Made by a program: the position numbers and the translations under genes
The notes under the pieces: model-generated
What the model saw: only the letters and a program-made list of their open reading frames with translations
Told to the model about the DNA's origin: nothing
Database searches by the model: none
IMG/VR virus record: IMGVR_UViG_3300044981_000021
Span: 1 to 64,000 of that record
Length of the DNA: 64,000 bases
DNA from: a virus
Direction: 5' to 3' (one strand)
Shown: positions 6,269 to 58,793 of the stretch, piece after piece
How positions within the stretch are numbered: position 1 is the first letter of the stretch
Layout: the number at the start of each line of letters is the position of its first letter

Positions 6269-7887
6269 CTATGAGATGGACGCTTCCGCTTTAATTAGTC
6301 TAAAGCGGGGGTGTAACGCCGCACTCTGTGGAACACGCCATTTATTGTTGCTCGCTTTCGCGGAGTCAGTCATTTCTGCTGACTTCTTACGGTTTGCTGT
6401 TCCCGTAAGATCGGACTATCGCATCGCCTTTCGGCGTCTTCTCGCTTAGTCTCTCACGGTGCTTTCGCTTCCGCCTTGTTCCCGTCGCAGGGTTCAAGTC
6501 AATCAGAGAAGATTTTACTGCCACACTTAACTTGTAAAAATGGCAGCGTACTTGAAATTATCTTAAGTTATTTGTTATCAATGCTTTACGTGCATTGAGC
6601 TAGATCATTTCTGTCTAGCTCTGCATGTCGCCATGCAGAACGGACTATCTCTTCACCCTCGCGGGTGCTGCCTACATAGTCTCTACACGTTCCGATTTTG
6701 CATCGGCTTCGCTCGGGATTGTCCCTGTGGGAGTTTCCCCGAATTCAAGCAGTTATCGCAGCCCAATTTCTTGAGTGCGGCCCTATTTTCAGTAAGGCAC
6801 AACTTGCGCCTACAACGCGGGCTGGGTCGGCCACTGATGGCTCCCAGTTCCGCACGATCAACTGATAATTCCGCTGTTCCGGGATTTCAGTTGCGCCAAG
6901 CGACACAGAGAAAACGGCATCCTGTCCAACAACATAGGTGCCATAGCCGGTCTTGGTACCGCTTGGGAAGTTGGCGAAAGTGCTAGCCGTAGTCGTTTCA
7001 ATGAAACGTGCTCCGGCGACATCAATGACACGGTATCCTTGGACTCCGCGCATCAATTCTTCGCTTCCTTCTTTGTGGTACTTCAGGATATCAATCACGC
7101 CACCCGCAGTATTATCGTTCAAACAATCTGTTACCCCGCATTTCTGCGTGGCTACGGCGTTTCCGCGTAGCTCTGCATGTCGCCATGCAGTTCGGACTGG
7201 CTCTTGGCTTTTGGCCTCTCCTGTACAGTCTCTACACATTCCAACTTGCGTTGGCTTAGCTCGGTTTTTACTCGATGAGTGGTTAACCGAATTAGGGAGA
7301 TTACGACCCCGTGAAAGGTCGAACGCTGCGAAGGGGTGAATAATCCCGGCAAACAAGCCATCCGTCTGTGGTCTAACGTCTGCGCCACGAAGGCTCATTA
7401 CGGCCTGGCGGGTCAACGAAGCAGAAAGAAATTCGTTGTCCGTGCAGGAAATAACGATGGTGGTATCGGCGGTAGCCTCAGCTTCAAACTCGGTACGGGC
7501 CAATGTGTTTGCTGTAAGAGCAGCACGGTAGCCCATCTCGGCAGCAGTATTTTCTACGATGGGATCAATTGCTGTTTCGACCAAGATATCCGAGAAGGAG
7601 GCGAAGTCGAAATACTGGTTAGCGGCGACGTTCCTTACGGAAGTCGTAGGGTTAATCCCGGTTCCAACGGTACCTTCTGTGCCCGGCGTGGTGTTTGCAG
7701 CGAAAAGATCGTAACCATAGAGTTGAATTACTCGGCCATTACGGTCTGGAAGTTTACGGCGGCTGGTGACGGCCACAAAGGGCAAATTAGCTTTCAAGTT
7801 TTCTACGGCCACCCGGTCGTAGTAAATACTTGCAAGATGGGTAAGCCCTGCTGTGGTAGTTAAAACACTGGCTGGTTGATAGCTCAA
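6269..7887 (-). CDS. major capsid protein (N4-gp56 type), spliced: exons 7887-7316, 7123-6795, 6561-6540, 6338-6269 (330 aa)
   Basis: Capsid-like motifs (LPDRNGR, FSDILVETAIDP, IIHP, RFIETT, GQDA, DP). Removing three group I introns joins an open frame ending GASCAYNFKYAAMRVPQSAALHPRFRLIKAEASIS*. TTG start after AGGTG; lies downstream of the scaffold gene. Confidence 0.88.
6339..6539 (-). mobile_element. group I intron 3 of capsid gene (201 nt, no ORF)
   Basis: P1 CTGCCAT/GTGGCAG with U.G at the 5' splice site; P7 GAGAGACTA...ATAGTCC; terminal G. Confidence 0.85.
6562..6794 (-). mobile_element. group I intron 2 of capsid gene (233 nt, no ORF)
   Basis: P1 GCCTTA/TAGGGC with U.G; P7 GTAGAGACTA...AAGAGATAGTCC; P9 CTGCATGGCGACATGCAG; terminal G; removal restores the frame. 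Confidence 0.88.
7124..7315 (-). mobile_element. group I intron 1 of capsid gene (192 nt, in frame, stop-free)
   Basis: P1 CGACCT/GGGTCG with U.G; P7 GTAGAGACTG...CCAGTCC; P9 identical to intron 2. Splice could alternatively be 7120-7314. Confidence 0.82.
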
Positions 7888-8087
7888 TGTTTTCACCTAT
7901 TGCTGATGAGATGACAAGCCCCGGGCCGCGCTATCTGGTCTTGCGGGATCGCCGCGCACAGTAAGATTGGCTAACGTGCTTGCACTAACACTCCCAACGG
8001 GTTGCCAACTTTACGTTCACAATTATGGTCGCTATTGGTCGTAGCGTTCACTTTTATGAACCTTATCGGCCTATCCGTGTTCTAGAG

Positions 8088-9260
8088 TTACCTTCCGGCA
8101 GCGGGACCGCGCTTCAACGAGGCAGCAATGCGCTGTCGCATTTCGTGAAGCGGTAGGTTCTGCCATCCGGCGACATCGATCCCTCCCTCGGGTTCAGGCG
8201 TCGGAGGCCGCTGACCAGAGCGGTCTGAGAGCATGACGGGTGGAGGCGATACGGGCGGCACCACGGGTTGTGGTGCAACAACTTGGGGTACGGGCGTAGG
8301 CGCAACTACAACTGGGGTAGGCGCAACTATTGGCACCGTAGGCGCAACAACGGGAGCAGATTCGGGGATTGGCGCGGGTTTGTCCATAAACGCCATTCCC
8401 TGTTCGGTTAAAGTTTCAAAAGCGTATTCGAGGTTGTTTTTTGTGGTTTGTAGTGGCAGATCGTGAATCTTGCCGCAACGCTTGCAATTGAAGCCACCAT
8501 CGGTTACTGCTCGCGTACAACCAGCCAAGAAGGCGTAAATAGCGTTTCCGCTCTTGGGGGTACAGTCAAAATCGTCTATATGGTCGGCAATGAATTCGGC
8601 TTCGGCTCGTTGTGCCGCTTCTTTTTCTTGGAATTGTTGGCTAGTGTAAACGGTGCGACCCAAGGAATCAGGTTTTGTCCCCGTTTCGGCTTCGTATAAA
8701 CGTCTCCAAGCGGCAACAATATCAGTTTTTGCGAGTTCGTTAATTTCTTTGATTTCGGCTTCATTTAATGTATGTGGCTGATAAACCAACTGTTCTTGTG
8801 GTCGCGTGGTATCTGGTTTTGCCTTGGCTTTTTCCTTGAGTTGGCGAATTCGCAAAGTGGCGTTCTTTTGGGCGTCTACTAACTTGTCAATCAGCCCTTG
8901 TTGGCTGTCGGACTTGAATACTTGTGGGCCAGAGCCATCACCAAGGTCAACCTTAGCCGTAAATTCTTTGGGTGGCTCGGGAGTCGCGTTAGGAGCCACT
9001 ACGGGAGCAGGTTGCGGGGCTGGGATAGGGTCGGGCTGCGGGACAACCTGAACGGGCGCTGTTGGGGCTGTAATAGGCTCAGGCGTTAGTTCTAGCGGGA
9101 CTGGTGGGATAGGAACAGCAAAATCGTCGGTCAATTGATATGATCGAGAAATTGGCGGTTTTCCTTGCCCAGCCTCAACCGGCGGAAATCCGTAAAGTTT
9201 ATCTAGTGTCGGATCAGAAATTTGCAATTCTGTTGGTACAGGAGGAGCAGATGTGGACAT
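8088..9260 (-). CDS. putative capsid scaffolding protein (Pro-rich)
   Basis: Immediately upstream of capsid; Pro-rich arms with a coiled-coil core. Confidence 0.65.
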   Translation of the reverse strand: MSTSAPPVPTELQISDPTLDKLYGFPPVEAGQGKPPISRSYQLTDDFAVPIPPVPLELTPEPITAPTAPVQVVPQPDPIPAPQPAPVVAPNATPEPPKEFTAKVDLGDGSGPQVFKSDSQQGLIDKLVDAQKNATLRIRQLKEKAKAKPDTTRPQEQLVYQPHTLNEAEIKEINELAKTDIVAAWRRLYEAETGTKPDSLGRTVYTSQQFQEKEAAQRAEAEFIADHIDDFDCTPKSGNAIYAFLAGCTRAVTDGGFNCKRCGKIHDLPLQTTKNNLEYAFETLTEQGMAFMDKPAPIPESAPVVAPTVPIVAPTPVVVAPTPVPQVVAPQPVVPPVSPPPVMLSDRSGQRPPTPEPEGGIDVAGWQNLPLHEMRQRIAASLKRGPAAGR

Positions 9261-14951: not shown

Positions 14952-17093
14952 TTACTTCTGCGCTCCGAGAATACCGAGCGGATCGTCACTAGGCGCAGAG
15001 CCTTGCTGTGGCTGCTGCTGATTCTGTTGCTGGTTGTTCTGGATATCGCCTAGAGTTTGAAGTAGCGCGATCTTATGATCTGGAGTCATAGTTTCCTGAT
15101 CGACAAGCGACTTGATAATATGTGTTCCCGCTTGAGCTTGTCCTTTGGCCTCAATCTCCCCAAGTTTTGCCTGATGTTGTTGTGCAATTACGCTCATCTG
15201 CTGTGCCATTTCCGCCTTCTGTGCCAATGCTTGCTTTTCTTCGGGAGTCAACTTAACAACCAACTCCTGTTGCCCCGGCCATCCCGAAGCATCTAAAACT
15301 TGTTGAAAGAACTTACCAAACTCAAACTTCTCTCCCGCATCTTGCAAGGCCGTTAGTACAGGCTGCTGACTGACAAATTGCATAATCGGCATAGCCAACT
15401 GCATCATGCCTTGCTGTGCCCGCATCTTGGTCCCGGCCTGCATATTGAACTTCACGTTCGCATTCTTAATCTCAATCGCATCGCCTTTGTAGGCTTCTTC
15501 TAATTCTTCATCTAGAACCGCCCGCAAATCTTCAATGGGAAGCCAACGCGAGTTCATTTCATGTACTAATTCTAGGAATGGAACGATGAATAAACGAGAT
15601 ACGAAGTCTACAAAGTAAGCCGACCTAGCCCCCACGCCTGCGGCAAGAGTATTAATCCCCGATGCCGTTCTACCAATCGAAGATGGATGGGAAATAGCTC
15701 CTTGGGTAACGATTTCATTCGCTCCCGACCTACGCTGGGCACGAGAATCCGAAGCTTCTACTTCAGTAAACGCATCCACGATAGCAGGTGGATACTGAAT
15801 CATCTGCACACCTTTATCGTCGTCGGAATCAATGATTCCGCCGGGGCGAAGTCTCAACTGCTGAGTCGGCGTGTTAGCTCCGCGTTTACGCAGGAACGTA
15901 CCCGATAGGCGCAGGGAAAGATCGTCTAGGCGGGAGTTGATGATGCCTTGCTGGAGTCGCTGTTCGCCGGAGAGAAGCTTGACGATTCCCAACCCATACC
16001 AGCTATCGAGCACGTCGATTGGAGGAACAGAAAAGAAGTTGATGCAGCCGAATTCGTTGATGTCGTTCTTGATGCAGAGTTTGCGATTAAGAACGACAAT
16101 ATTTCTAGTCGGAGTCACGTACTCCAACATCTCAAGCGGCTGAAGATTTGGGTCTTCGGACGGCGACTGCCATCTTGGCATCGCTTTGAATTCCATGTTG
16201 ATATCTAAAGACGAAATACCCGTATTGAGAACTGAAGTAGTAGAGCGTCCTTCCATCACCGACCGTTCCGCGCTTTCCTTTGGCGGGTCGTAGAGCGAAC
16301 GCAAGAAAGCTTCATCGGGAAGATTGAACCCCGGTTGGTTCTTGAGTTGCAGCAGGGCGTTTAAATCTGGATAGGTGCGATGAATTAGGTATTTCGCTTG
16401 TCTGATATCGGGAACCCGTAGCGATGGATCAACCAAGATATGACGAATATGGATTTTTTCTATGCATGGCTGATTAATTTCGTACTCTTCTAGTTCTTCG
16501 ATTACACGACGGGAATCTTCAGTCGGCGTAATAATTGTCATGCCTGCCCCTACGGACCTAGCTTCAGGTTGGCCTGCATACTTATAAACCCTGCGATATC
16601 TTTTCTCGCGCTTCCACCCCACCTTCCATACACCCATGCCGTACATCAGGGCTTCTTTCAGCCCAAGCCTTAATTCTTCCTCAAAGTTCATGTCCTTGAG
16701 TTGCTTCGAGATAAGCATAGTTACCGCCTTGGCGGCTTCTATTTTCGTCTTCGCTCTAGGCGTGCAAGAGAATGGCGGATCGTCTGAGTAGAGCGCCTGC
16801 ATGTATTGCGGTAACAAACTTTCTATGTGTTCCAAGGTTAAGGGTATACCTAAACTGCTCCTTGGAACGGAAGACCCCTCCCAGAACGCAGTTGGCATTC
16901 TAAAAAGATATAGTCTGTCGTCGCGGTCAAACTCTATAGTTAATCCTTTAGAAAGTGTGTACCACTCTGATCTTTGCAGGTCTTTTAGAACTAGGTTTAA
17001 TGCGATTACATCTTTAGGCAATTGTGGCGCGGGAGGAAGTTGCTCGCTAAGTATTTCGTGAGCCATACTGATCGGACTATTGAGTAAAGCCAA
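14952..17093 (-). CDS. portal protein
   Basis: 713 aa; YGMGVWKVGW, LVDP, WYGLG, RPGGII, RTASG, Q-rich C-terminal barrel typical of P22/T7-like portals. Confidence 0.85.
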   Translation of the reverse strand: MALLNSPISMAHEILSEQLPPAPQLPKDVIALNLVLKDLQRSEWYTLSKGLTIEFDRDDRLYLFRMPTAFWEGSSVPRSSLGIPLTLEHIESLLPQYMQALYSDDPPFSCTPRAKTKIEAAKAVTMLISKQLKDMNFEEELRLGLKEALMYGMGVWKVGWKREKRYRRVYKYAGQPEARSVGAGMTIITPTEDSRRVIEELEEYEINQPCIEKIHIRHILVDPSLRVPDIRQAKYLIHRTYPDLNALLQLKNQPGFNLPDEAFLRSLYDPPKESAERSVMEGRSTTSVLNTGISSLDINMEFKAMPRWQSPSEDPNLQPLEMLEYVTPTRNIVVLNRKLCIKNDINEFGCINFFSVPPIDVLDSWYGLGIVKLLSGEQRLQQGIINSRLDDLSLRLSGTFLRKRGANTPTQQLRLRPGGIIDSDDDKGVQMIQYPPAIVDAFTEVEASDSRAQRRSGANEIVTQGAISHPSSIGRTASGINTLAAGVGARSAYFVDFVSRLFIVPFLELVHEMNSRWLPIEDLRAVLDEELEEAYKGDAIEIKNANVKFNMQAGTKMRAQQGMMQLAMPIMQFVSQQPVLTALQDAGEKFEFGKFFQQVLDASGWPGQQELVVKLTPEEKQALAQKAEMAQQMSVIAQQHQAKLGEIEAKGQAQAGTHIIKSLVDQETMTPDHKIALLQTLGDIQNNQQQNQQQPQQGSAPSDDPLGILGAQK

Positions 17094-18275: not shown

Positions 18276-19997
18276 TCACGCAACTATGCCCGCACCGCAC
18301 ACGGGTTCCGGTCCATACGCCATCGCCCCGCCAATCTCAACCGGGCCTTGATAGCTCAAGGCCGTACTAGTCATCCCCTGCCCATGGTAGCGCAAGAGTA
18401 ACGAGCAAGCCCGGCAAATATCATCATGGCTATACCCACCCCCAAATCGGGCAAACTCGGTGTAAAGTTCGGCTAGGTAAGGCAAATCGCTACAAAAGAA
18501 CAATTTCCCAATCGGCGGCGTAGGTACATTTAATGTATCTTCTGGGCGAAGGTTTGACAATGCCTGCTGCTGTTGGGTCAGGTTGTTAGGCTGCACGGGA
18601 GCGGTTTTCCCGAGCAAGGTAGCCAAAGACAGGATTTCGTTAGCGGGACCGTTTTTCTTGTTCCCAACCTTCAGCCAATCTATCGGTATCATCAATCCTA
18701 GCTCCCTCATGCGCATATTTAGCCCTGGACCTAGCAAAGTAGTCCCCACGGCCTCTTCGATGCCCATACGCTGTATTGGCCACTTTTTCCATGCAGCGAT
18801 GAAGTTGTCTATGATCTGCGGGGGGTTCCAACGGCCACGGAACAGGTCGATGACATAGATATTCTTCATCTCATCAAACGCCCCAATAGCTCCTACTGTG
18901 TAGTCGTTCCTACTGCTAGCTTTGTAGGCTAAGTCCCAAACCCCGAAGATGACGCAATTCAGCGGCACTTTCTGTCGTGGAATGGTTTGTTTCTGAAGTA
19001 GCTCGATTGGGAAATAGTCGCGCTCCGTACCAATCGGGTGATTCATGTACTGGGCGTTAAAGTGGGTAGGATTCTCTTCCCATGCTTCTTGCAGGTTAAA
19101 CTTGTCTGAGTTGGCTATTTCTTCTTCTGGCGTAGTGGCGTTGATGCAGAACTTTTCGGGGAAAAGAATGTTTTCCTTGTTGAAGAGGTTGCCGTTCTCG
19201 TTCTTCGTTAGTGCGGGATATACCGCTATCTTCCATCCCTTGACTGTTTCTTCTAACGGAACCCCGAAGTTCATGTGGTCTGACAACTGGAGTCGGTCTA
19301 GTATTTTCCCGTAAAGGCACTGAAAGTTGTAGAACGTTCCAATAATTTGCGTGTATCCACCGGGATTCAGTAACGGTTTAGTCGCGGCCCAATCATCGGC
19401 AACTTTGTCATTCTGGTTAATCTTGGCGCTCATGTTAATCTTACTGTTGACTTCCGTCACCACGTCATCGGCTAGCCGGAGGTCCCAGTGCCCTGATGCT
19501 TTTACGGAGTCGAAGGTAGAGATACTAAGCGTTGGCTCTCTGCGAATACGAGTACGAACATTGCGCGGCAACCAGAACTCTCCCTTGCCGCCAAATTCTC
19601 TGACGTTATCTGTGGGAATGTAATCTGGATATAGCGCCCTGAAATCTTCGCAACTCAAGAATACTTGCTTCAATTCTTCGACCATCCTTGTAGCGACTTC
19701 TTGACTACCAGAAAGTAGAAGAATGGTTATATTTGGGAAACATAGCATCCATTGCAAAACATCGCAGAGATGAATTGAAGTTTTGAAGTGTCCCCTCGGC
19801 CCCATTAGTAAACGATTCTTAATCGTATCCTGCAAGAAGAATGATTTATTGGGATTCTTGTGAACGAAAAAATCGCAGATAGGGCCGTGGCAGTGCGGCT
19901 GGAGGTCGCTATAGACTGAGCCTAAAATTTGGGATGCGAGGAAGAAAAGATCGGTTTTGCCGCGTTGGGCTACGGGGGATATTGGCACACTACTCAC
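18276..19997 (-). CDS. terL: terminase large subunit
   Basis: PRGHFKTS Walker A, LADD Walker B, IIGT, AQYMNHP, nuclease WDLA...DYT...HDDICR. Confidence 0.92.
   Translation of the reverse strand: MSSVPISPVAQRGKTDLFFLASQILGSVYSDLQPHCHGPICDFFVHKNPNKSFFLQDTIKNRLLMGPRGHFKTSIHLCDVLQWMLCFPNITILLLSGSQEVATRMVEELKQVFLSCEDFRALYPDYIPTDNVREFGGKGEFWLPRNVRTRIRREPTLSISTFDSVKASGHWDLRLADDVVTEVNSKINMSAKINQNDKVADDWAATKPLLNPGGYTQIIGTFYNFQCLYGKILDRLQLSDHMNFGVPLEETVKGWKIAVYPALTKNENGNLFNKENILFPEKFCINATTPEEEIANSDKFNLQEAWEENPTHFNAQYMNHPIGTERDYFPIELLQKQTIPRQKVPLNCVIFGVWDLAYKASSRNDYTVGAIGAFDEMKNIYVIDLFRGRWNPPQIIDNFIAAWKKWPIQRMGIEEAVGTTLLGPGLNMRMRELGLMIPIDWLKVGNKKNGPANEILSLATLLGKTAPVQPNNLTQQQQALSNLRPEDTLNVPTPPIGKLFFCSDLPYLAELYTEFARFGGGYSHDDICRACSLLLRYHGQGMTSTALSYQGPVEIGGAMAYGPEPVCGAGIVA
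18525..18537. repeat. 13-bp palindrome TACATTTAATGTA
   Basis: Family member, inside terminase. Confidence 0.85.
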
Positions 19998-20791: not shown

Positions 20792-21259
20792 TTAGAAATT
20801 AGTGCAAGCAAATTCGCCAAACAACTTAATAGCTGCTGCATCGTAAGCTCTAGCGGCTTCTTTTGGATCAGAAAATCTTCCTAGGTTATATTGTTTACCA
20901 TTCTTGTTGATATACGCCCTATACCTAAGACGTTCAGGGGACCAGCTAACGCCCTTATATCCGCTAGCATTATTGCGGGGCGTTTTTCTGTTCATCTTGT
21001 TCTGCGATGGCGTGGCTAGTCTAAGGTTGGATTTTTGGTTATTGAATTTATTTTGGTCTTTGTGGTCCCACTGAAATCCAACAGGAGGATTACCGCAAAT
21101 CGCGAAATGTATATATTCCTTCTTGGCGTTTCTTATGCCGCGAATCCACGGGTCTTTCTTGTTGGTAATAACATACCATTTTTGGTTCGCAAGTTTGTTG
21201 TAATCTTCGTCGTCAACTTGGGCTAGAATATCGGAATTGGTAAGCCGTATTTCCTTCAT
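20792..21259 (-). CDS. HNH-AP2 homing endonuclease
   Basis: VDDED, DHKDQNKFNNQKSNLR, SGYKGV, AARAYDAAA..LFGEFA. Confidence 0.9.
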   Translation of the reverse strand: MKEIRLTNSDILAQVDDEDYNKLANQKWYVITNKKDPWIRGIRNAKKEYIHFAICGNPPVGFQWDHKDQNKFNNQKSNLRLATPSQNKMNRKTPRNNASGYKGVSWSPERLRYRAYINKNGKQYNLGRFSDPKEAARAYDAAAIKLFGEFACTNF

Positions 21260-40286: not shown

Positions 40287-40721
40287 TCAGTGGTCGGAAA
40301 TGGCATATAAACTCCAATACGGCACGATTTTCATGTTCTTTAGGTGATGATCTGAATGGCATTTAGCGTCTAGGCACGCGACATTCTGTAAAACGTCAGA
40401 CCCACCAAGGCTGCGATGTTGTAAATGGTGTAGTTCAAACGTTAGGTAATGAAATGGTTTACCACAACGTTTGCCTTGTTTTACGCTCTCGCACCTGCCA
40501 CCGCTGCGTTGGTAGGCGGCCAGCCTTAAATCCTCCATCCCCCTAGCGTCCAACCTAATCTTGCCGCTTCGCCAAGAAGTCTTAGCCTTCTTTGGTTTTT
40601 TCTTGATCCAACTTCTTTTAAGCGGTTTTTTGGGCTTTTTCACGAAGTTTACTCGCTTGTTTCTCGGCTGTTTTCTTTCGCCTATCCGCAGCCTGTAATT
40701 CTTCCGCGTTGCCAGCTTCAA
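40287..40721 (-). CDS. HNH endonuclease (true start probably downstream)
   Basis: GRCE...ELHHLQHRSLGGSDVLQNVACLDAKCH. Confidence 0.75.
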   Translation of the reverse strand: MKLATRKNYRLRIGERKQPRNKRVNFVKKPKKPLKRSWIKKKPKKAKTSWRSGKIRLDARGMEDLRLAAYQRSGGRCESVKQGKRCGKPFHYLTFELHHLQHRSLGGSDVLQNVACLDAKCHSDHHLKNMKIVPYWSLYAISDH

Positions 40722-42355: not shown

Positions 42356-44002
42356 CTAAAATGGTGTCTGGTCGTTAACCGCATTTCGTTTCCGCCCATT
42401 ACTAGGCGGGGTGTACTCGATACGCTCTAGTTTAATCGCTCCATCGGCTGTGTCAAGAACTTTAAAAAAGAATTTCTCCGGAGCCATCGCGGCCTTGATT
42501 TCGCAAAGGAACTCTCGTGTCCACGTGTCCTCATCCTCAACCCTGATTCCCAATACGAATTCTGCATATCCAGCGATTGATCCCGCCCCGCGTATGCTTT
42601 CTGTCAGTGTGGCGTCGGCAGTTTTGTTGCTGTGGTGAATCACGCATATAGATGCCCCGGTTTCGTTTTGGATGTGATTTAACACATCAATTACGCCTTT
42701 TTGCATGTCGGTCGGGGAATTCTCGTCTTGTCCATGCAAGACCCGCATAACGTCTAAGATGAGAAATTCGGCTTGATGATGCTTTAAATCTGCAATCAAT
42801 TTGGTTACGTCTTCGGGATAATCGAGCATTATTTTAGGACGTAACCCCTTAGCGTTTACAAATAACCAACCATCTAGATCGGCGGCAGTCAATTGGCGAT
42901 GAGCGCGGAGTTTCTTGAGTCTCCACTGAGTTAATGCGGCATTATCCTCGCGGCTCACTAGCGCGACCTTGGCTCGCTTAGGAACGAAGAAATCTAGCCA
43001 TTTCTGCCCACTCGCGATAGCCAACGCCATGTCTAGTGAAACGATAGACTTTCCAGCCTTAGGACGAGCCACAAAAATTCCATTGGAGCCGCGTTGAATA
43101 ACGCCTTCGATAAGCCAATCAATATATTCCGCCGACCGTTCCTCGAATTGAGTAATAGTCATAAACAGCGTGGCCGTTGGTTCTTCTGGTTTCCATGTCG
43201 GCGTATTCTTGACCAATTGAATCAGTTCTTGAACGGTATGCGCGGCGAGATAGTCCGACACGTCTTTTACGTCAGGACAGGAAACAATCTTCACACCATT
43301 GGCATACCGATAGACGGAGTTAGCTACTTGGAGGGCGTGGGCACGACCGGGATCGTCGTTGTCCTGAAAGATGATGACTTTTTTGCCCGTAAAAAATGGA
43401 GAAAAGCGGTCCTGCCATTTTCCTGCCCCTCGCGGCGAAGTCGTCGCCGTAAACTTCCCGCTTTGATTGCGGAGTATAGTTCGCAAATTATCGGCATCGC
43501 GTTCCCCTTCCGCGCAAGCTACCTCGCTCGCGCATATAATTTCATCCAAGTGATAGGGCACCATCGGAATGTCTTGCGTTTTATATTCCCACGTCCCATC
43601 GTCTTTTTTGTGGCGCTGCGTAAATCGCTTGCCTGGGTATCGAACGACTTGGAAGATTTCTTTGCCATTGGCGTCTACATAGGAATAGATTGCTTCGGGT
43701 TCTTTCCCGGTCGATAGGAACAACTGCGGTTGGCCGACAATCTCGGCTATCTGCTTCAATGCCGCCTGTTTGTCGCATGAGGAAAATTTTTGCTCGAAAT
43801 CTAAAATTCCACCCTTACCACACCCCGCATGACAAAACCATACCCCGGATTGCATGTTGACAGAAAATGCTGGAGTGTTAGTGTTGTCGTGGAATGGACA
43901 TAGCGCCATCCATCCGCGTCCAGACCTGCGCAGCCTTCGATCTTGAAGTCTTGCTTCAAAAAAGCGAGTGAATTCCTGTTCTGATAGCTCGCTTATTCGC
44001 AA
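42356..44002 (-). CDS. primase-helicase (CHC2 zinc finger + TOPRIM + AAA_25/RepA-like helicase)
   Basis: CPFH...WFCHAGC, EGERDA, DNDDPG, ARPKAGKS Walker A, LILD, IHHSNK, RGAG. Confidence 0.9.
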   Translation of the reverse strand: MRISELSEQEFTRFFEARLQDRRLRRSGRGWMALCPFHDNTNTPAFSVNMQSGVWFCHAGCGKGGILDFEQKFSSCDKQAALKQIAEIVGQPQLFLSTGKEPEAIYSYVDANGKEIFQVVRYPGKRFTQRHKKDDGTWEYKTQDIPMVPYHLDEIICASEVACAEGERDADNLRTILRNQSGKFTATTSPRGAGKWQDRFSPFFTGKKVIIFQDNDDPGRAHALQVANSVYRYANGVKIVSCPDVKDVSDYLAAHTVQELIQLVKNTPTWKPEEPTATLFMTITQFEERSAEYIDWLIEGVIQRGSNGIFVARPKAGKSIVSLDMALAIASGQKWLDFFVPKRAKVALVSREDNAALTQWRLKKLRAHRQLTAADLDGWLFVNAKGLRPKIMLDYPEDVTKLIADLKHHQAEFLILDVMRVLHGQDENSPTDMQKGVIDVLNHIQNETGASICVIHHSNKTADATLTESIRGAGSIAGYAEFVLGIRVEDEDTWTREFLCEIKAAMAPEKFFFKVLDTADGAIKLERIEYTPPSNGRKRNAVNDQTPF

Positions 44003-44460
44003 AAAAATTCTCCGTGGTATGCGAGCGCATATTTCCTGTAAGCGTCGGCGGCTTCGCGTTCGTCGCTAAACGATCCGAGGTAGTGACTTTTCCCATCAAC
44101 CCTGATGTTAGCAATCCATTTTTGGGCCTTTTTGTTCCACGCAACACCCTTAAATTTTGAACTGCTAGGATGTTCTCGGTGCAAGTTGAATTGATTTTGC
44201 TGGCGGGTGGCGATTCGTAGATTCTCTCTTCTGCAATTTAACCCATTGTGGTCCTTGTGGTCTACGACTAACTTTTTATCAGCAACCCCCATAATCACGC
44301 GATGCAACATGTGTAATTTTAAACTAGGCCAATCGGGGCGATAGGCGTATTTATGCTTGTTCCTCACAACAAGCAGGGACCATTTCCATTGAGATAAATA
44401 TTGGTAATCTTCGTCGTCTACTATGGCAACCAAACCACGACTGAGGGGAAGTTCTTTCAT
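43993..44460 (-). CDS. HNH-AP2 homing endonuclease
   Basis: VDDED, VDHKDHNGLNCRRENLR, SKFKGV, YHGEF. Confidence 0.9.
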   Translation of the reverse strand: MKELPLSRGLVAIVDDEDYQYLSQWKWSLLVVRNKHKYAYRPDWPSLKLHMLHRVIMGVADKKLVVDHKDHNGLNCRRENLRIATRQQNQFNLHREHPSSSKFKGVAWNKKAQKWIANIRVDGKSHYLGSFSDEREAADAYRKYALAYHGEFFCE

Positions 44461-53557: not shown

Positions 53558-53633
53558 TGGTGGGACGGGCCAGAATCGGACTGGCTACCACATGGGCTTC
53601 AGCCATGCACTCTACCGGCGAGTTCCACGTCCC
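53558..53633 (-). tRNA. tRNA-Phe(GAA)
   Basis: Loop CTGAAGC, CCA. Confidence 0.8.
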
Positions 53634-53687
53634 AAAATATTTTAGTGCGCTTGATAAAGTTTACGCAACCACGTCATAATAACACTT

Positions 53688-54227
53688 ATGAAGATAGCCA
53701 TCCATCATGGTAAACGCCGCAAACTTTATGAAACAAATTGCCAACACTGCAAGATATCGTTTTATACGCCAAAACATAAACTAGACAAACAGTTGTCAAA
53801 GTATTGCTCCTTGCCGTGTTTCCACGCGGCCTCACGAACGGCAACAATAAAACCGTGCGCCATATGCGAAAAACAAATCACGAGAACTCTAACGGCCTTG
53901 TCGCGATGCAAAAGTGGCCTATTTTTCTGCTCACGTAAATGTAAATCCATAGGCCAAAGATTTGAAAATACAACCATGGCCGCCTGCCATCCTGCGCATT
54001 ACAAGGATGGTTCTTCGGCCTACGGTAGAATTGCGATTCGCCACCACGGTAATCACTGCAATCGTTGTGGCTACAAAGAACATATTGAAATACTCCGCAC
54101 TCACCATAAAGACAGAAATAGCGAAAACAACTTGCCGGATAACCTTGAGCGCTTATGCCCAAATTGTCACGAAACTGAACATTTTTTAGCGGGCGATGGT
54201 GTTTATACTGGACACAAACGCCACTAG
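53688..54227 (+). CDS. HNH endonuclease with Zn-finger repeats, inverted within tRNA array
   Basis: CxxC/YCS/FCS repeats; HHKDRN..NN...NLERLCPNCH. Confidence 0.85.
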   Translation: MKIAIHHGKRRKLYETNCQHCKISFYTPKHKLDKQLSKYCSLPCFHAASRTATIKPCAICEKQITRTLTALSRCKSGLFFCSRKCKSIGQRFENTTMAACHPAHYKDGSSAYGRIAIRHHGNHCNRCGYKEHIEILRTHHKDRNSENNLPDNLERLCPNCHETEHFLAGDGVYTGHKRH

Positions 54228-54243
54228 CTCACTGCTCAAAATT

Positions 54244-54318
54244 TGGTGGAGGCGCGGAGAGTCGAACTCCGGATACTTGGTTGCAGGCCAAGTGTGTTCC
54301 CGCTAGCACTACGCCCCC
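54244..54318 (-). tRNA. tRNA-Ala(TGC), C33
   Basis: Loop CCTGCAA, G3.U70 pair, CCA. Confidence 0.88.
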
Positions 54319-54320
54319 AT

Positions 54321-54396
54321 TGGGGTATACGAGGAGGGTCGAACTCCCTAAAGACTGTTCCACAGACAGTCGCCGCACCGTTTGGCTTCGCATACC
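54321..54396 (-). tRNA. tRNA-His(GTG)
   Basis: Loop CTGTGGA, G-1:C73, CCA. Confidence 0.88.
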
Positions 54397-54402
54397 ATAA
54401 CT

Positions 54403-54477
54403 TGGAGCTGAACGTCAGGCTTCAACTGACATCTCCGAATTCACAAGATTCGTGTTCTGGTTTTGAACTAGTTCAGC
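54403..54477 (-). tRNA. tRNA-Thr(TGT), G37
   Basis: Loop CTTGTGA, CCA. Confidence 0.8.
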
Positions 54478-55173
54478 AATTTCTCTAAATTCTCTTGTCC
54501 GTCTTTTCTTTCGCCTAGAAGCACTTGCTTGTTTATTTCGTGATCGAAACGTGGGCGTCAAGGCGTGGCAATTAGGGCATAGCAATTTCAGGTTTTCGTC
54601 CTTATTGTTGTCGGCGTCTCCGTTGATATGTTCTATTTCTAGGGGTATTGGTTTTTGCAGCCACTCGGTCAAGCCGCAACTTTCGCACCGATACCCACGA
54701 GTTCTAAATAAATATCCACGTAATGCATGACTAGTCCTAGCCGTTTCGGGAGAAGTGGTTAGACAATAAATCCGCATTCCGTAACACGAATTACAGAATT
54801 TCCTATGCGTCGAGCACGGCGTTCCACAATGTTCACACTGTCCGGACGTGAGTGCTCGCTTGCGGCGATGTTTTAAGTAACACGCCCGACTACACGACCG
54901 CTGCTTTCGCTTCTCGTATGACATCTTTTCGCCACAATAAATACAACGCTTATTAGCAGCTTTTTCTCTAGCCGCCAAGGAAATCCCAACTCTAAATGCA
55001 GTCAATTTGTCTTTGGCTGCCAACCATCCGATGCGCCCAACATCTTCCCTCGACATTATCGGCTGTTCCCGTGGATCGTTTGTGTATATTCTTCGTGTTG
55101 TTTTTAAGGTGCGATCCCGATTCTTGTAATACCACCTGCGACGAGCCGCACGCCTTTTATCTTGGTTGCGCAT
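54415..55173 (-). CDS. HNH endonuclease (3' end overlaps tRNA-Thr)
   Basis: CESCG..EW...PLEIEHINGDADNN..ENLKLLCPNCHALT. Confidence 0.85.
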   Translation of the reverse strand: MRNQDKRRAARRRWYYKNRDRTLKTTRRIYTNDPREQPIMSREDVGRIGWLAAKDKLTAFRVGISLAAREKAANKRCIYCGEKMSYEKRKQRSCSRACYLKHRRKRALTSGQCEHCGTPCSTHRKFCNSCYGMRIYCLTTSPETARTSHALRGYLFRTRGYRCESCGLTEWLQKPIPLEIEHINGDADNNKDENLKLLCPNCHALTPTFRSRNKQASASRRKKRRTREFREIAELVQNQNTNLVNSEMSVEA

Positions 55174-55181
55174 ATAAATGT

Positions 55182-55255
55182 TGGAGCCAAGAATACGAAT
55201 CGGACGTATGCTTCGGTCGTACCAGGACCGCGTACTGCCACTATACGATCAAGGC
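55182..55255 (-). tRNA. tRNA-Thr(GGT)
   Basis: Loop CTGGTAC, CCA; two acceptor-stem mismatches. Confidence 0.78.
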
Positions 55256-55257
55256 TC

Positions 55258-55332
55258 TGGAGCCGAGACGGCGAATCGAGCGCCGATAACGAGTTTACGA
55301 ATCTCGCATTCTTCCACTTGAATTATCCCGGC
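55258..55332 (-). tRNA. tRNA-Thr(CGT)
   Basis: Loop TTCGTAA, CCA. Confidence 0.82.
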
Positions 55333-55338
55333 CAAACT

Positions 55339-55413
55339 TGGACTGCCGTGAGCGAATCGGACGCTCGTATAAGGTTTTGCAGACCTCAGCCTAAACCACT
55401 CGGCCAACGGCAG
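55339..55413 (-). tRNA. tRNA-Cys(GCA)
   Basis: Loop CTGCAAA, U73, CCA. Confidence 0.88.
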
Positions 55414-55419
55414 TAAAAT

Positions 55420-55520
55420 CTAGGTGTACGGTCCAAGAATCGCCGCGTTCCCGAATCGAACGGACCAACGCCACTGCTGCCTTGCAAGCGACCAGCGCCT
55501 TGTTGCGCACATACACCTAG
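55420..55520 (-). ncRNA. candidate tRNA-like ncRNA (Y RNA/YrlA-like?)
   Basis: 9-bp terminal stem CTAGGTGTA/TACACCTAG, internal T-loop CCG-TTCGATT-CGG, no CCA or anticodon arm. Confidence 0.45.
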
Positions 55521-55524
55521 AACT

Positions 55525-55598
55525 TGGAGCGGGATGCCGTAATCGAAACGGCGTCTGGAGTTTGGAAGACTCCGGCCTTGCCACTAGACGAATCCCGC
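55525..55598 (-). tRNA. tRNA-Gly(TCC)
   Basis: Loop CTTCCAA, U73, CCA. Confidence 0.9.
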
Positions 55599-55844
55599 TT
55601 ACTCAACGCATACACCGTTCATGTTTGTGGCGGTGCATTCTAAACAAAATTCTACCGCATGTTTAACGCATGGATACTGCTTCCAGCCATGCCTAGCCAT
55701 GTAATGATCCCAATGGCTAGCGACCCAATAGCGGGGTCGCGAACTGGCACCAGCGCCGTGAGTCGGACACGGTACATCTGTTTTGGAGACAGATCGAGCA
55801 CCCTTTTCGTCTTCGCTGGCAAAAATCTTCTTGAACAACTTCAT
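55599..55844 (-). CDS. small hypothetical protein in tRNA array
   Basis: AAGGA RBS; fills the gap between tRNAs. Confidence 0.45.
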   Translation of the reverse strand: MKLFKKIFASEDEKGARSVSKTDVPCPTHGAGASSRPRYWVASHWDHYMARHGWKQYPCVKHAVEFCLECTATNMNGVCVE

Positions 55845-55867
55845 TAAACGAACTTCCTTTCGTAATC

Positions 55868-55946
55868 TGGCGGTCGCAGCGGAATTTGAATCCGCGATCT
55901 GTTCCGTGACAGGGAACTGGGGACGGCCTGACTCCCCTATGCGACC
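55868..55946 (-). tRNA. tRNA-Asp(GTC)
   Basis: Loop CTGTCAC, G73, CCA. Confidence 0.88.
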
Positions 55947-56133
55947 GAATCTTTACAATGCGTACAGATGCATCCCCTGCCATGCAATTTAGAGATGCAC
56001 TTACTGCACCAAAGTTGCGCCCAACCACCACAAAGTTTCTCGCCAATCACGTGCTCCTTTGCGTCCATGACGGTCATAACTGCCCCGCTGCACCTGTGGC
56101 AAAACCCGATATGTTTCACGTGCGACATAAAAA

Positions 56134-56207
56134 TGGCCCCGAGTAGTTGAATCGAACAACTGTTGGCTGATCCAGAGTCAGCAGTCTTGCCACTAAACGA
56201 ACTCGGA
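56134..56207 (-). tRNA. tRNA-Gln(CTG)
   Basis: Loop CTCTGGA, CCA. Confidence 0.88.
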
Positions 56208-56212
56208 AATCT

Positions 56213-56246
56213 TGGAGCCGGGAGTATTTTAATGAGCTATCCCGGC
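56213..56246 (-). pseudogene. 34-nt tRNA remnant/minihelix GCCGGGA-TAGCTCATTAAAATAC-TCCCGGC-T-CCA
   Basis: Perfect 7-bp acceptor stem, TAGCTCA D-arm start and CCA; anticodon and T arms absent. Confidence 0.7.
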
Positions 56247-56308
56247 GCGCTCACTCGCGGAGCGTTGTCTGAAAAGGCGATCAACCCTCCAGTCGCAACG
56301 ACGCAAAA

Positions 56309-56382
56309 TGGAAGGGAGTCTGAGAATCGGACTCAGGTCTGATGATCCAAAGTCATCGGCATTGCCATTATGCGAACTCCCT
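56309..56382 (-). tRNA. tRNA-Gln(TTG)
   Basis: Loop CTTTGGA, CCA. Confidence 0.88.
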
Positions 56383-56718
56383 AACTCTTCAACGGAATTG
56401 CGCGTACGCATCTCGCGCAAATCACAAAACTTGAATCTACATCTTTTTCTAGTTTGCGCCGCGCCTCGCGACATTCTTCCACTAGGGCACGATGGTCTGA
56501 TAGCCCCATGCGGCAGTAATCTATCGTCCCGGGCATTACAATCGCGCCTAGAAGTTCATGCTTCATAAATCCTTAACTCAAATGGCCCAAAGCGGTAACT
56601 TGTGTACGGGCTATATCCCCACATAAGCGTCCCGTTCATGCGTAACGTCTTGCCAAAACTCCATGCATCCCAATATGCGTGCCACGTTACGAGTTTGGAG
56701 CCGATAGTCATAAATCCT

Positions 56719-56793
56719 TGGTAGGGCCAACGGAAGTCGAATCCGTATTCACGCCTTGAAAGAGCGTTTACCTAGCCGTTAGTAGATGGCCCC
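56719..56793 (-). tRNA. tRNA-Glu(TTC)
   Basis: Loop CTTTCAA, CCA. Confidence 0.85.
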
Positions 56794-56799
56794 AAAACT

Positions 56800-57144
56800 T
56801 TATACGGTCGCAGAATTGGCTATCACGGCCTCCGCGTATTCCACTAAGGGGCCATAACGCCTGCTATATCTCTTGTTTTTGCTTTGCTCCTTTGGCGTTG
56901 CCCAACGAACATTGCCACGTTCGTAATGACCGTTATTGTTTATCCTTTCTAGTGTTGAACCCTCCGGCCTCGGGCCTAATTCTTACATGAATTCGCCAAA
57001 CGAAACAAATCTAAATTCTATCCCCCTGCCGCCGTAGTACCTGAAATCTTCGCAATTACTATTCATGCAACGGTATCGCGCATGGTCGAAAGATTTATAT
57101 TCCCGCTTAAATTGTTTCGTTAAGCCACTTCCCGAAAATCTCAC
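56800..57144 (-). pseudogene. HNH endonuclease with in-frame TAA (56983-56985)
   Basis: RC...YYGGRGI...FGEFM*ELGPRPEG.TLERINNNGHYERGNVRWAT; AGGAG RBS. Confidence 0.8.
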
Positions 57145-57156
57145 CGTTAATCTCCT

Positions 57157-57193
57157 AAAAAACGTTTAGCCCCGCATTGTTTTTCGGGGCTAA
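57157..57193 (-). terminator. attenuator terminator hairpin after leader 2
   Basis: TTAGCCCCG/CGGGGCTAA stem then ACGTTTTTT. Confidence 0.7.
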
Positions 57194-57199
57194 TTGAAC

Positions 57200-57212
57200 T
57201 ACGTTAAATGTA
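57200..57212. repeat. 13-bp palindrome TACGTTAAATGTA
   Basis: Family member, inside attenuator 2. Confidence 0.85.
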
Positions 57213-57226
57213 CTTTCCCCGATTGT

Positions 57227-57298
57227 TTATGGCGTACCTTCCCCCGCCTGCCATTGGGCTGGTGTCGGGAAGCAATCGGCATGAAATTGAACATTCAT
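57227..57298 (-). CDS. leader peptide 2 MNVQFHADCFPTPAQWQAGEGTP (codon sensor for tRNA block 2)
   Basis: 19 of codons 4-23 specify amino acids of the downstream tRNAs; promoter upstream, terminator downstream. Confidence 0.78.
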   Translation of the reverse strand: MNVQFHADCFPTPAQWQAGEGTP

Positions 57299-57312
57299 TG
57301 GTTAATGAAACA

Positions 57313-57342
57313 AGCCTAAAGCATGTCTGCTTGTTCTGTCAA
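57313..57342 (-). promoter_or_regulatory. promoter for block 2 (TTGACA-18-TAGGCT)
   Basis: Consensus match 14 nt before the leader ATG. Confidence 0.6.
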
Positions 57343-57350
57343 GAAAAAAG

Positions 57351-57427
57351 TGGAAGGCCGGATCGGACTTGAACCGACAACCTCAAGATTCGGAATCTTG
57401 CGCGAGTTCCCTTTTCGCTTCCGGCCC
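57351..57427 (-). tRNA. tRNA-Arg(CCG)
   Basis: Loop TTCCGAA, CCA. Confidence 0.85.
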
Positions 57428-57430
57428 AAA

Positions 57431-57507
57431 TGGTCCTAGCGACAGGATTCAAACCTGCATTCAACTGTTTAGGAAACAGTGCCGTTGTTCAGTTACGGAA
57501 CGCTAGG
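57431..57507 (-). tRNA. tRNA-Arg(CCT)
   Basis: Loop TTCCTAA, CCA. Confidence 0.85.
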
Positions 57508-57512
57508 AAAAT

Positions 57513-57811
57513 CGGCCACAAGTCAAACTGCAAACTTTCGCTAGCTACTTCGTCCTTCTGCGCTGGGCCACTCACGACGGTTAAGCTCTATCTATCCCAG
57601 CCTTCGGTCGGCTCTTTCCTCCGATTAGGGGCGTCATCTTCCAGACTTTTTGCCAACTTCGTTGGTTCCACTAGAACCATTACTGGATTGCATCTAACTT
57701 CGCCAACGCGACACTAGATCGACTTTCGGGAGCGGGTTAGATACCCGTTGCTTGGCCAAGCATCCCCTCGGCTAGTCGTCCAACCGGCAAGCGGCAGTTT
57801 TTTCGTGGCCG
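57513..57811 (-). ncRNA. candidate ~300-nt structured ncRNA in tRNA array
   Basis: Closing stems CGGCCAC/GTGGCCG and AAACTGC/GCAGTTT; many internal hairpins; no sense-strand ORF in the track. Confidence 0.6.
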
Positions 57812-57833
57812 AAATAAATATAACACGGGAAAA

Positions 57834-57911
57834 TGGTGCAGGATAGTGGACTCGAACCACTCGCCTCGGCTTTCGTAGAACCGCGCTCTAGTCCTGATGA
57901 GCTAATCCTGC
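57834..57911 (-). tRNA. tRNA-Arg(ACG)
   Basis: Loop CTACGAA, CCA. Confidence 0.9.
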
Positions 57912-57916
57912 AAACT

Positions 57917-57991
57917 TGGGAGCGCATAACCGGGTCGAACGGTTGTCTCTTAGGTAGAAGCCAAGGCTCTGTCCTGTTGAGCTAATGCGCC
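57917..57991 (-). tRNA. tRNA-Arg(TCT)
   Basis: Loop CTTCTAC, CCA. Confidence 0.82.
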
Positions 57992-57998
57992 ACAATTC

Positions 57999-58074
57999 TG
58001 GTGGAAGTGAGACGATTCAAACGTCCATCGGCCTACTTAAAAGGTAGGGGTCTTAATCGTTAGACGACACTTCC
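57999..58074 (-). tRNA. tRNA-Lys(TTT)
   Basis: Loop CTTTTAA, CCA. Confidence 0.88.
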
Positions 58075-58079
58075 AAAAC

Positions 58080-58154
58080 TGGTGGAGCGCAATGGACTCG
58101 AACCATTGTTTCCCGAGTAAGGGTCGGGTTGCCTAGCCACTGACGGAGCGCTCC
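58080..58154 (-). tRNA. tRNA-Lys(CTT), C33
   Basis: Loop CCCTTAC, CCA. Confidence 0.8.
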
Positions 58155-58160
58155 TAAAAA

Positions 58161-58238
58161 TGGTGCGGAATATTGGAATTGAACCAATGGCCTCGTCCTT
58201 ATCAGAGACGCGCTCTAAGCCAACTGAGCTAATTCCGC
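58161..58238 (-). tRNA. tRNA-Ile(GAT)
   Basis: Loop CTGATAA, CCA. Confidence 0.9.
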
Positions 58239-58239
58239 A

Positions 58240-58315
58240 TGGTGCCGGAGCCAAGACTCGAACTTGGGACTTCCTGCTTGTAGGGCAGGCACTCTGGCCG
58301 CTGAGTTAATCCGGC
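58240..58315 (-). tRNA. tRNA-Val(TAC), C33
   Basis: Loop CCTACAA, CCA. Confidence 0.85.
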
Positions 58316-58317
58316 AC

Positions 58318-58392
58318 TGGTTGAGGGCGATGGAATCGAACCATCCCGAAACAGTGTTTATAAGACGCCGCAGCGCTCCAGTGCTGCCCTCA
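58318..58392 (-). tRNA. tRNA-Ile(TAT)
   Basis: Loop CTTATAA, CCA; irregular D and anticodon stems. Confidence 0.7.
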
Positions 58393-58397
58393 AAATC

Positions 58398-58473
58398 TGG
58401 TACGAGTGGGAGGAATCGAACCTTCCGACACCGTGGTTATGGGCCACGTAATCTACCACTGATCTACACTCGC
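58398..58473 (-). tRNA. tRNA-CAT (Met or Ile2), C33
   Basis: Loop CCCATAA, CCA. Confidence 0.8.
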
Positions 58474-58698
58474 TCAACTTAAACCGCCTACGCGCCATTT
58501 ATCGTTGATTTGCGCGTATTCCTGCTCAATCTTTCCAACCCGAACCACGGTCCAACGGCGTTCATTCATAAGCGATTCTTCGTGGTCGAAGGTTACGACG
58601 TTACCGCGCTTTAATCTCCACGATGCATCTACCCATGCAGTCGTATGGCGAACACCGCCATTTACTTTACGCTCGAATTGGACTTGAACCATCCTCAT
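58474..58698 (-). CDS. small hypothetical protein in tRNA array
   Basis: Fills the gap between tRNA-Asn and tRNA-CAT. Confidence 0.5.
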   Translation of the reverse strand: MRMVQVQFERKVNGGVRHTTAWVDASWRLKRGNVVTFDHEESLMNERRWTVVRVGKIEQEYAQINDKWRVGGLS

Positions 58699-58705
58699 AA
58701 AAATA

Positions 58706-58793
58706 TGGCTGGCACGAGAGGACTCGAACCTCCAGAGGGTTGCCCCACTTCATTAACAGTGAAGCCCGCTACCAAATTACGGTTTACATGCCA
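58706..58793 (-). tRNA. tRNA-Asn(GTT) with long variable arm
   Basis: Loop CTGTTAA, G73, variable arm TGGGGCAACCCTCT, CCA. Confidence 0.82.

Follow-up and report, generated by a model that had tools for sequence, protein, structure and literature searches.

A phage genome of 100.9 kb, complete and with terminal repeats, very probably has three compact, selfish group I introns in its sole capsid gene; they lack endonuclease genes and would be spliced from the transcript. Introns 1 and 2 are paralogues from one family, and intron 3 belongs to a second one that is very widespread in phages. The phage is represented by a metagenome assembly, virus record IMGVR_UViG_3300044981_000021, which is 100,880 bp long, has direct terminal repeats and is rated 100% complete; the window analyzed here is the first 64 kb (64,000 nucleotides) of that record, and positions refer to it unless stated otherwise. 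Following late transcription, each ribozyme would fold into a P3-P9.2 core with a P3/P7 pseudoknot and would bind its 5' exon by means of a guide specific to that site, forming a P1 helix with a U.G pair. Guanosine-initiated, two-step transesterification would then remove the introns, and the ligated 993-nt mRNA would be translated into a 330-aa capsid protein. That splicing takes place, that it is self-sufficient and where the endonuclease comes from are conclusions that we infer from sequence.

Layout and product of the capsid gene

The split gene, which encodes a major capsid protein of the N4-gp56 family, occupies positions 6269..7887 on the minus strand and consists of four exons and three introns. 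Its start codon is the TTG at 7887: homologues begin at the same residue, with MAYQPAS or MSYQPAS, and direct reading of the sequence reveals a Shine-Dalgarno-like AGGTGA 5 nt 5' of the TTG (7893..7898, minus strand). Exon 1 (7887-7316, 572 nt) encodes residues 1-190 and two bases of codon 191, and is followed by intron 1 (7315-7124, 192 nt). Exon 2 (7123-6795, 329 nt, residues 191-300) is separated by intron 2 (6794-6562, 233 nt) from exon 3, a micro-exon of 22 nt (6561-6540) that codes for (Y)NFKYAA(M); intron 3 (6539-6339, 201 nt) precedes exon 4 (6338-6269, 70 nt), which holds the last 22 residues and the TAG stop codon. All of these elements lie on the minus strand, and each of the three introns is without an endonuclease ORF. 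The preliminary description of this locus, made from the letters and a list of open reading frames, had proposed three inserts of 192-233 nt with the junctions GACCT/TTTG, GCCT/ATAAT and GCCAT/GCGT (the slash marking the junction); its coordinates proved exact, and all three junctions are read in the sequence as it gave them.

The joined exons form a 993-nt CDS that encodes 330 aa. Removal of the inserts, which had been said to yield a clean capsid protein of that length, does so: aligned with 15 homologues, most of which are uninterrupted and 330 aa long themselves (e.g., P0003), the spliced protein matches from end to end and is gapless at every junction. The predicted junction peptide of exons 1 and 2 in the spliced product is AAFDLLNDNTAGG (FDL/LNDN), those predicted for exons 2, 3 and 4 are SCA/YNFKYAA/MRVPQ, and exon 3 is required to restore the conserved AYNFKYAAMRVPQ of the homologues. 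According to the homologue alignment, the insertion sites fall in the most conserved segments of the protein, namely AFDL/LNDNTAGG, EIPEQRN and GASCAYNFKYAAMRVPQ.

Because intron 1 keeps the reading frame and contains no stop codon, ORF finders report a 383-aa read-through ORF at 6745-7896. The earlier statement that the ORF track misses the capsid goes too far, since the part running through intron 1 is called. In this phage and in several relatives, the capsid gene is miscalled as a 'hypothetical protein' of 346-383 aa or as fragments.

Two protein families bear out the assignment of the gene to a major capsid protein that had been made from the letters. TIGR04387, 'N4-gp56 family major capsid protein', is matched by exon 1 alone with 60.4 bits, the curated cut-off being 60, and by the ~96% identical intronless homologue P0003 with 74.6 bits; phrog_1357, 'major head protein', matches the capsid gene with an E-value of 7.7e-17. 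The gene is part of a head module on the minus strand, in which the terminase large subunit (18276-19997) and the portal (14952-17093) are followed by the capsid (7887-6269). Between portal and capsid, at the position expected of a scaffold, lies the gene for a 390-aa proline-rich protein (window 8088-9260, minus strand) that has no PHROG match. At least 18 tRNA genes, detected with Rfam at the gathering score, are densely packed at 53562-58791 of the window, also on the minus strand.

No second capsid gene was found in the 100,880-bp genome. Given that this is the sole capsid gene of the phage, capsid production would have to depend on removal of the inserts, and the dependence that had been postulated for it stands as a deduction. 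Within a 202-aa open frame outside the window, a 45-residue stretch (G000:C1:94818-94952, minus strand) aligns with residues 81-125 of the capsid protein at 42% identity and a score of 26 bits; the match may be a capsid-derived fragment or may be due to chance, and is not a second capsid gene.

Group I architecture of the inserts

The Rfam group I model RF00028 (Intron_gpI), which has a gathering score of 50 bits, detects intron 2 with 68.3 bits and an E-value of 1e-16 over positions 6621-6783. Introns 1 and 3, searched alone with E-values up to 10, produced no RF00028 match, only snoRNA and lncRNA noise at E >=0.6. A comparison with group I covariance models, put forward in the preliminary description as a means of verification, thus succeeds at Rfam for intron 2 and finds no match there for the other two, even though the P3-P9 architecture of RF00028 is common to all three introns. 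Introns 1 and 3 were assigned on the basis of alignments and of two covariance models, R1 and R2, that we made ourselves from sequences chosen for their similarity. The intron 1/2 family, with intron 3 left out, served to build R2, and the intron 3 family served to build R1. R2 recovers intron 3 over its full length with 56.5 bits and an E-value of about 1e-15, and R1 recovers intron 2 with an E-value of 3e-4; the 198.5 bits that R2 gives intron 1 arise by construction. Across all three introns, our own covariance models give E-values from 1e-15 to 1e-61, well outside what chance would produce.

Introns 1 and 2 are 74% identical over 109 nt and have in common an identical 23-nt segment, CTGCATGGCGACATGCAGAGCTA, which confirms the shared P9 segment that had been noticed earlier; intron 2 has a P2 helix and intron 1 has none. 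Their core presumably resembles an Azoarcus-type IC3 intron, a similarity that we take as a lead only.

The helices are supported by covariation in both families. Seven members of the intron 1/2 family, from four sites, were aligned on a structure comprising P3, P4, P5, P6, P7 (the pseudoknot), P8, P9, P9.1 and P9.2. In this alignment 96.2% of cells are paired, P7 is 100% paired, and 33 of the 45 pairs have changed on both sides in a compensatory manner; a control with slid partners yields pairing in only 32-39% of cells and compensation in 2-7 pairs. The intron 3 family, represented by 80 cores, has 93.6% of cells paired and compensatory changes in 19 of 30 pairs, including a G-C/A-U exchange in a pair of P7.

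The architecture claimed for the inserts, with a P1 U.G pair, AGAGACT...AGTCC and a terminal G, was found in all three of them. The terminal G (omega-G) is present in three of three introns at a base that is fixed independently by protein homology. The guide of intron 1, GGGUCG (7309-7304), pairs with the last 6 nt of exon 1, CGACCU, via U.G; that of intron 2, GGGC (6783-6780), pairs with the exon sequence GCCU via U.G and amounts to only 4 bp; that of intron 3, GUGGCAG (6524-6518), pairs with the last 7 nt of exon 3, CUGCCAU, in 7 bp that include the U.G. P10 pairings, judged by eye, are weak. Introns at other sites in relatives have guides retargeted to match their own exons, and a comparison of L002 with L017, two of the related loci, reveals a compensatory exon/guide change (UGAUCGU/GCGAUCA versus UAAUCGU/GCGAUUA). 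No endonuclease ORF was found inside the three introns, whose longest internal sense ORF is 45 aa; the earlier description of them as free of endonucleases was correct, as no ORF in any of the three is large enough.

Alternative readings of the locus

One alternative is a decaying pseudogene in a defective or misassembled genome, its inserts being junk or assembly chimeras that are never removed. The genome is indeed a metagenome assembly, but this reading is very improbable. Against it stand a complete genome with terminal repeats and no other capsid gene, insert boundaries at which homology resumes to the base, compensatory changes that keep the helices, and independent assemblies with the same intron 1 (in the relative L001) or members of its family. 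Moreover, the spliced coding sequences of the window and L001 differ by 134 synonymous and 5 non-synonymous codons, spread over all exons including those 3' of every intron, a ratio that indicates strong purifying selection on the exons. Between these two genomes, intron 1 differs at six positions, four of which form two compensatory pairs, one in P7 and one in P9.1. Together, the codon ratio and the compensatory changes in intron 1 indicate that protein and ribozyme are both under selection. The same changes at the RNA level bear on the notion that intron 1 is translated, as a 64-residue insertion domain or a mini-intein, and that only inserts 2 and 3 are introns. Its 192 nt are open in the window as well as in L001, and a corresponding protein (P0002) appears in gene calls; by our own estimate, about one in 20 random 64-codon stretches is open, so that the openness may be due to chance. 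Intron 1 has the full ribozyme architecture, is homologous to intron 2 and has a guide that matches its own exon, and reading on with intron 2 retained meets a stop codon shortly after exon 2. To our knowledge, 64 residues is also below the size of known inteins, and a translated intron 1 seems scarcely credible. Frameshifting or translational bypass was ruled out because ribozyme cores and guides are present in all three inserts.

The best-supported reading, that of three spliced group I introns, would be compatible with their having been co-opted as a checkpoint, in which the level of GTP or Mg, or the kinetics of folding, gates capsid synthesis and the micro-exon sets the order of splicing or permits skipping. 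The micro-exon does provide the P1 strand of intron 3, and skipping around an exon of 23 nt takes place in orf142 of phage Twort (PMC10136302). Here, however, skipping of the 22-nt exon would cause a frameshift with loss of the conserved C-terminus, and introns 2 and 3 differ in both family and guide. Relatives with 96-98% identical capsid proteins lack introns at these sites or have them elsewhere, so any checkpoint would be dispensable. This patchiness among near-identical capsids is the pattern of selfish elements and not of a regulator, which speaks against the 'timing checkpoint' that the preliminary description had suggested, and we regard co-option as unlikely.

Distribution among relatives and intron mobility

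Among ~68 related capsid loci, ~57 contain an uninterrupted 990-nt gene. In the interrupted loci, introns are scattered over several positions of the CDS: near nt 99 in L017/L200 and L199; at 572 in L001, L027 and L035/L203, in addition to the window; at 611 in L035/L203; at 829 in L001; at 842 in L002/L201 and L017/L200; and at about 970 in L017/L200. Three capsid introns each are present in L017/L200 and in L040. Sites 901 and 923 are empty in all other genomes among the ~68 related loci. Site 572, which is empty in most relatives, holds three forms of intron, of 192 and 207 nt without an ORF and of 679 nt with one. In the ~103-kb relative L035 (positions 213-1150), and likewise in L203, the 679-nt intron with its endonuclease-like ORF at 572 is followed by a 40-nt micro-exon and by a 220-nt paralogue of intron 1 at 611.

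The introns would be selfish mobile elements and not regulators; they lie where the gene is best conserved, and their occurrence among close relatives is patchy. Exon identity between the window and L001 reaches 97-98% at the site of intron 1 and falls to ~67-83% a few hundred nt away, decaying on both sides. This peak is the pattern that homing with co-conversion would leave, despite the lack of an ORF in intron 1, which at least would thus seem to have undergone a recent gene conversion of the homing type. The combination of presence/absence polymorphism with a flank that resembles a co-conversion tract was found for intron 1 only.

Endonuclease-like ORFs of 156-200 aa do occur in introns of the relatives L001, L017 and L035, at sites ~99, 572 and 829. 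One of these ORFs passes the Pfam model LAGLIDADG_3, and two are mutually homologous and match phrog_5046. The intron ORF of L001 carries the PHROG label 'HNH endonuclease', whereas a LAGLIDADG-like motif is recognized in it by eye; a sequence search of PDB with this ORF returned no match. The genome studied here encodes five free-standing HNH-type ORFs (20792-21259, 40287-40721, 43993-44460 and 54415-55173 on the minus strand and 53688-54227 on the plus strand), none of which adjoins the capsid gene. Those at 20792-21259 and 43993-44460 have an HNH_3 + AP2 architecture; one of the five is found immediately upstream of the terminase, and two are within the tRNA region. The genome contains no GIY-YIG endonuclease, and a search, run without a positive control, found in it no homologue of the intron-borne endonucleases of the relatives; nor could any endonuclease be linked to one of the three capsid sites. 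Mobilization in trans, which the preliminary description had proposed, is plausible in view of the free-standing HNH ORFs, of the endonuclease-bearing introns that relatives have at the same or neighbouring sites and of the identity peak around intron 1. The endonuclease acting on intron 1 would probably have been supplied in this way, by a co-infecting relative or by a free-standing gene.

Sequence and motif scans and the models R1 and R2 detected no further introns of either family outside the capsid gene in the 100.9-kb genome. A broader proposal, which we consider rather doubtful, is that the capsid gene acts as a sink for ORF-less ribozymes: the intron 1/2 family would have colonized at least five sites (572, 611, 829, 842 and 901) with retargeted guides, through transposition by reverse splicing or through capture in trans, its ORF-less copies may persist by protecting the capsid gene from the endonucleases of co-infecting relatives, and capsid genes, if the intron 3 family is considered as well, would constitute a major and largely unannotated niche of group I introns in environmental phages. 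With the same gene present with and without introns, one family at five sites and a co-conversion tract, the relatives form a natural series for the spread of group I introns that lack an endonuclease. The locus leaves existing knowledge of the group I intron mechanism unchanged, and its value lies in annotation and in intron mobility; the capsid introns described here are a further example of known selfish elements.

Comparison with known systems

Three minimal introns in a capsid gene had been called unusual, which is an overstatement in view of precedents in Twort orf142, LittleE, Tuc2009 and the Jug phages. In Staphylococcus phage Twort, orf142, later recognized as a tail tube gene, contains three group I introns and undergoes exon skipping; introns 2 and 3 flank an exon of 23 nt (Landthaler & Shub 1999, as described in PMC10136302 and PMC11878797). 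Common to the two loci are three group I introns in one late virion gene, a micro-exon that separates the second intron from the third (23 nt in Twort, 22 nt in our phage) and two introns that are close paralogues. They differ in that the gene encodes a tail tube protein in Twort and a capsid protein here; Twort introns 2 and 3 (IA2) form the paralogous pair, as opposed to introns 1 and 2 in our phage, where the micro-exon separates introns of different families; and exon skipping was observed in Twort, whereas splicing of the present locus is predicted from its letters.

Capsid-gene group I introns have been described in mycobacteriophage LittleE and lactococcal phage Tuc2009, with splicing confirmed for LittleE (PMC3706429). 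These phages resemble ours in having the major capsid gene split by group I introns; unlike the present case, each has a single intron, and the 819-bp insert of LittleE includes an HNH endonuclease, compared with three ORF-less introns of 192-233 nt in an unrelated capsid of the N4-gp56 type (PMC3706429). The Jug jumbo phages of the gut, with genomes of 360-402 kb, average 18.5 introns of ~206 nt per genome, located in terL, nrdD and the DNA polymerase gene, and in three of the genomes, for which 76 introns were predicted, metatranscriptomes confirm precise splicing of 37 (PMC12880540). They resemble our phage in that small introns interrupt essential genes, and Jug phages have stand-alone endonuclease genes nearby (PMC12880540). 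In contrast, the phage described here has a 101-kb genome whose only three introns, by scans for both intron families, are all in the capsid gene.

A closer sequence relative of intron 2 is the intervening sequence of K1E-type terminase genes, with a core that is ~85% identical over 70 nt and that R2 matches over its full length with 81.6 bits. In coliphage K1E (NC_007637.1), a 45-kb Autographiviridae phage, the terminase large-subunit gene is arranged as 40A, the homing endonuclease 40.5 and 40B. An endonuclease gene thus follows the intervening sequence in the K1E terminase gene, whereas the introns of our capsid gene are endonuclease-free.

The intron 3 family beyond this phage

The core pattern of the intron 3 family was found in at least 119 viral contigs, with no close relative of intron 3 among the related capsid loci. 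In 18 viral loci with at least 22 intron-3-type cores in all, RF00028 at its gathering score did not detect a single one. Two of the three capsid introns described here and every intron 3 family member tested escape this model, so that introns in viromes are undercounted.

Intron 3 is 72-74% identical to the gaps between split CDS in the RNR genes of CRP-118 and in the coat genes of ctn9Y15. In Roseobacter phage CRP-118, a gap of ~400 nt between the RNR CDS gp44 and gp45 (OR420741.1, 35056-35455; L041, 2496-2895) holds an unannotated intron-3-type core, and Rfam did not detect this RNR intron. Podoviridae sp. ctn9Y15 (MW202674.1, 16872-17088; L042, 1496-1712) has a P22 coat gene that is given as two CDS and a 39-aa 'hypothetical protein', and the gap likewise holds an intron-3-type core that is unannotated.

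Several members of the family sit in capsid genes of unrelated folds. In one unrelated viral contig (L056, 446-2476), a capsid gene of phrog_283 contains three intron-3-type cores, and three pieces of the gene match consecutive parts of the capsid profile. Two or three intron-3-type copies lie close together in L044, L060, L064, L067, L086, L110, L116, L117 and L121.
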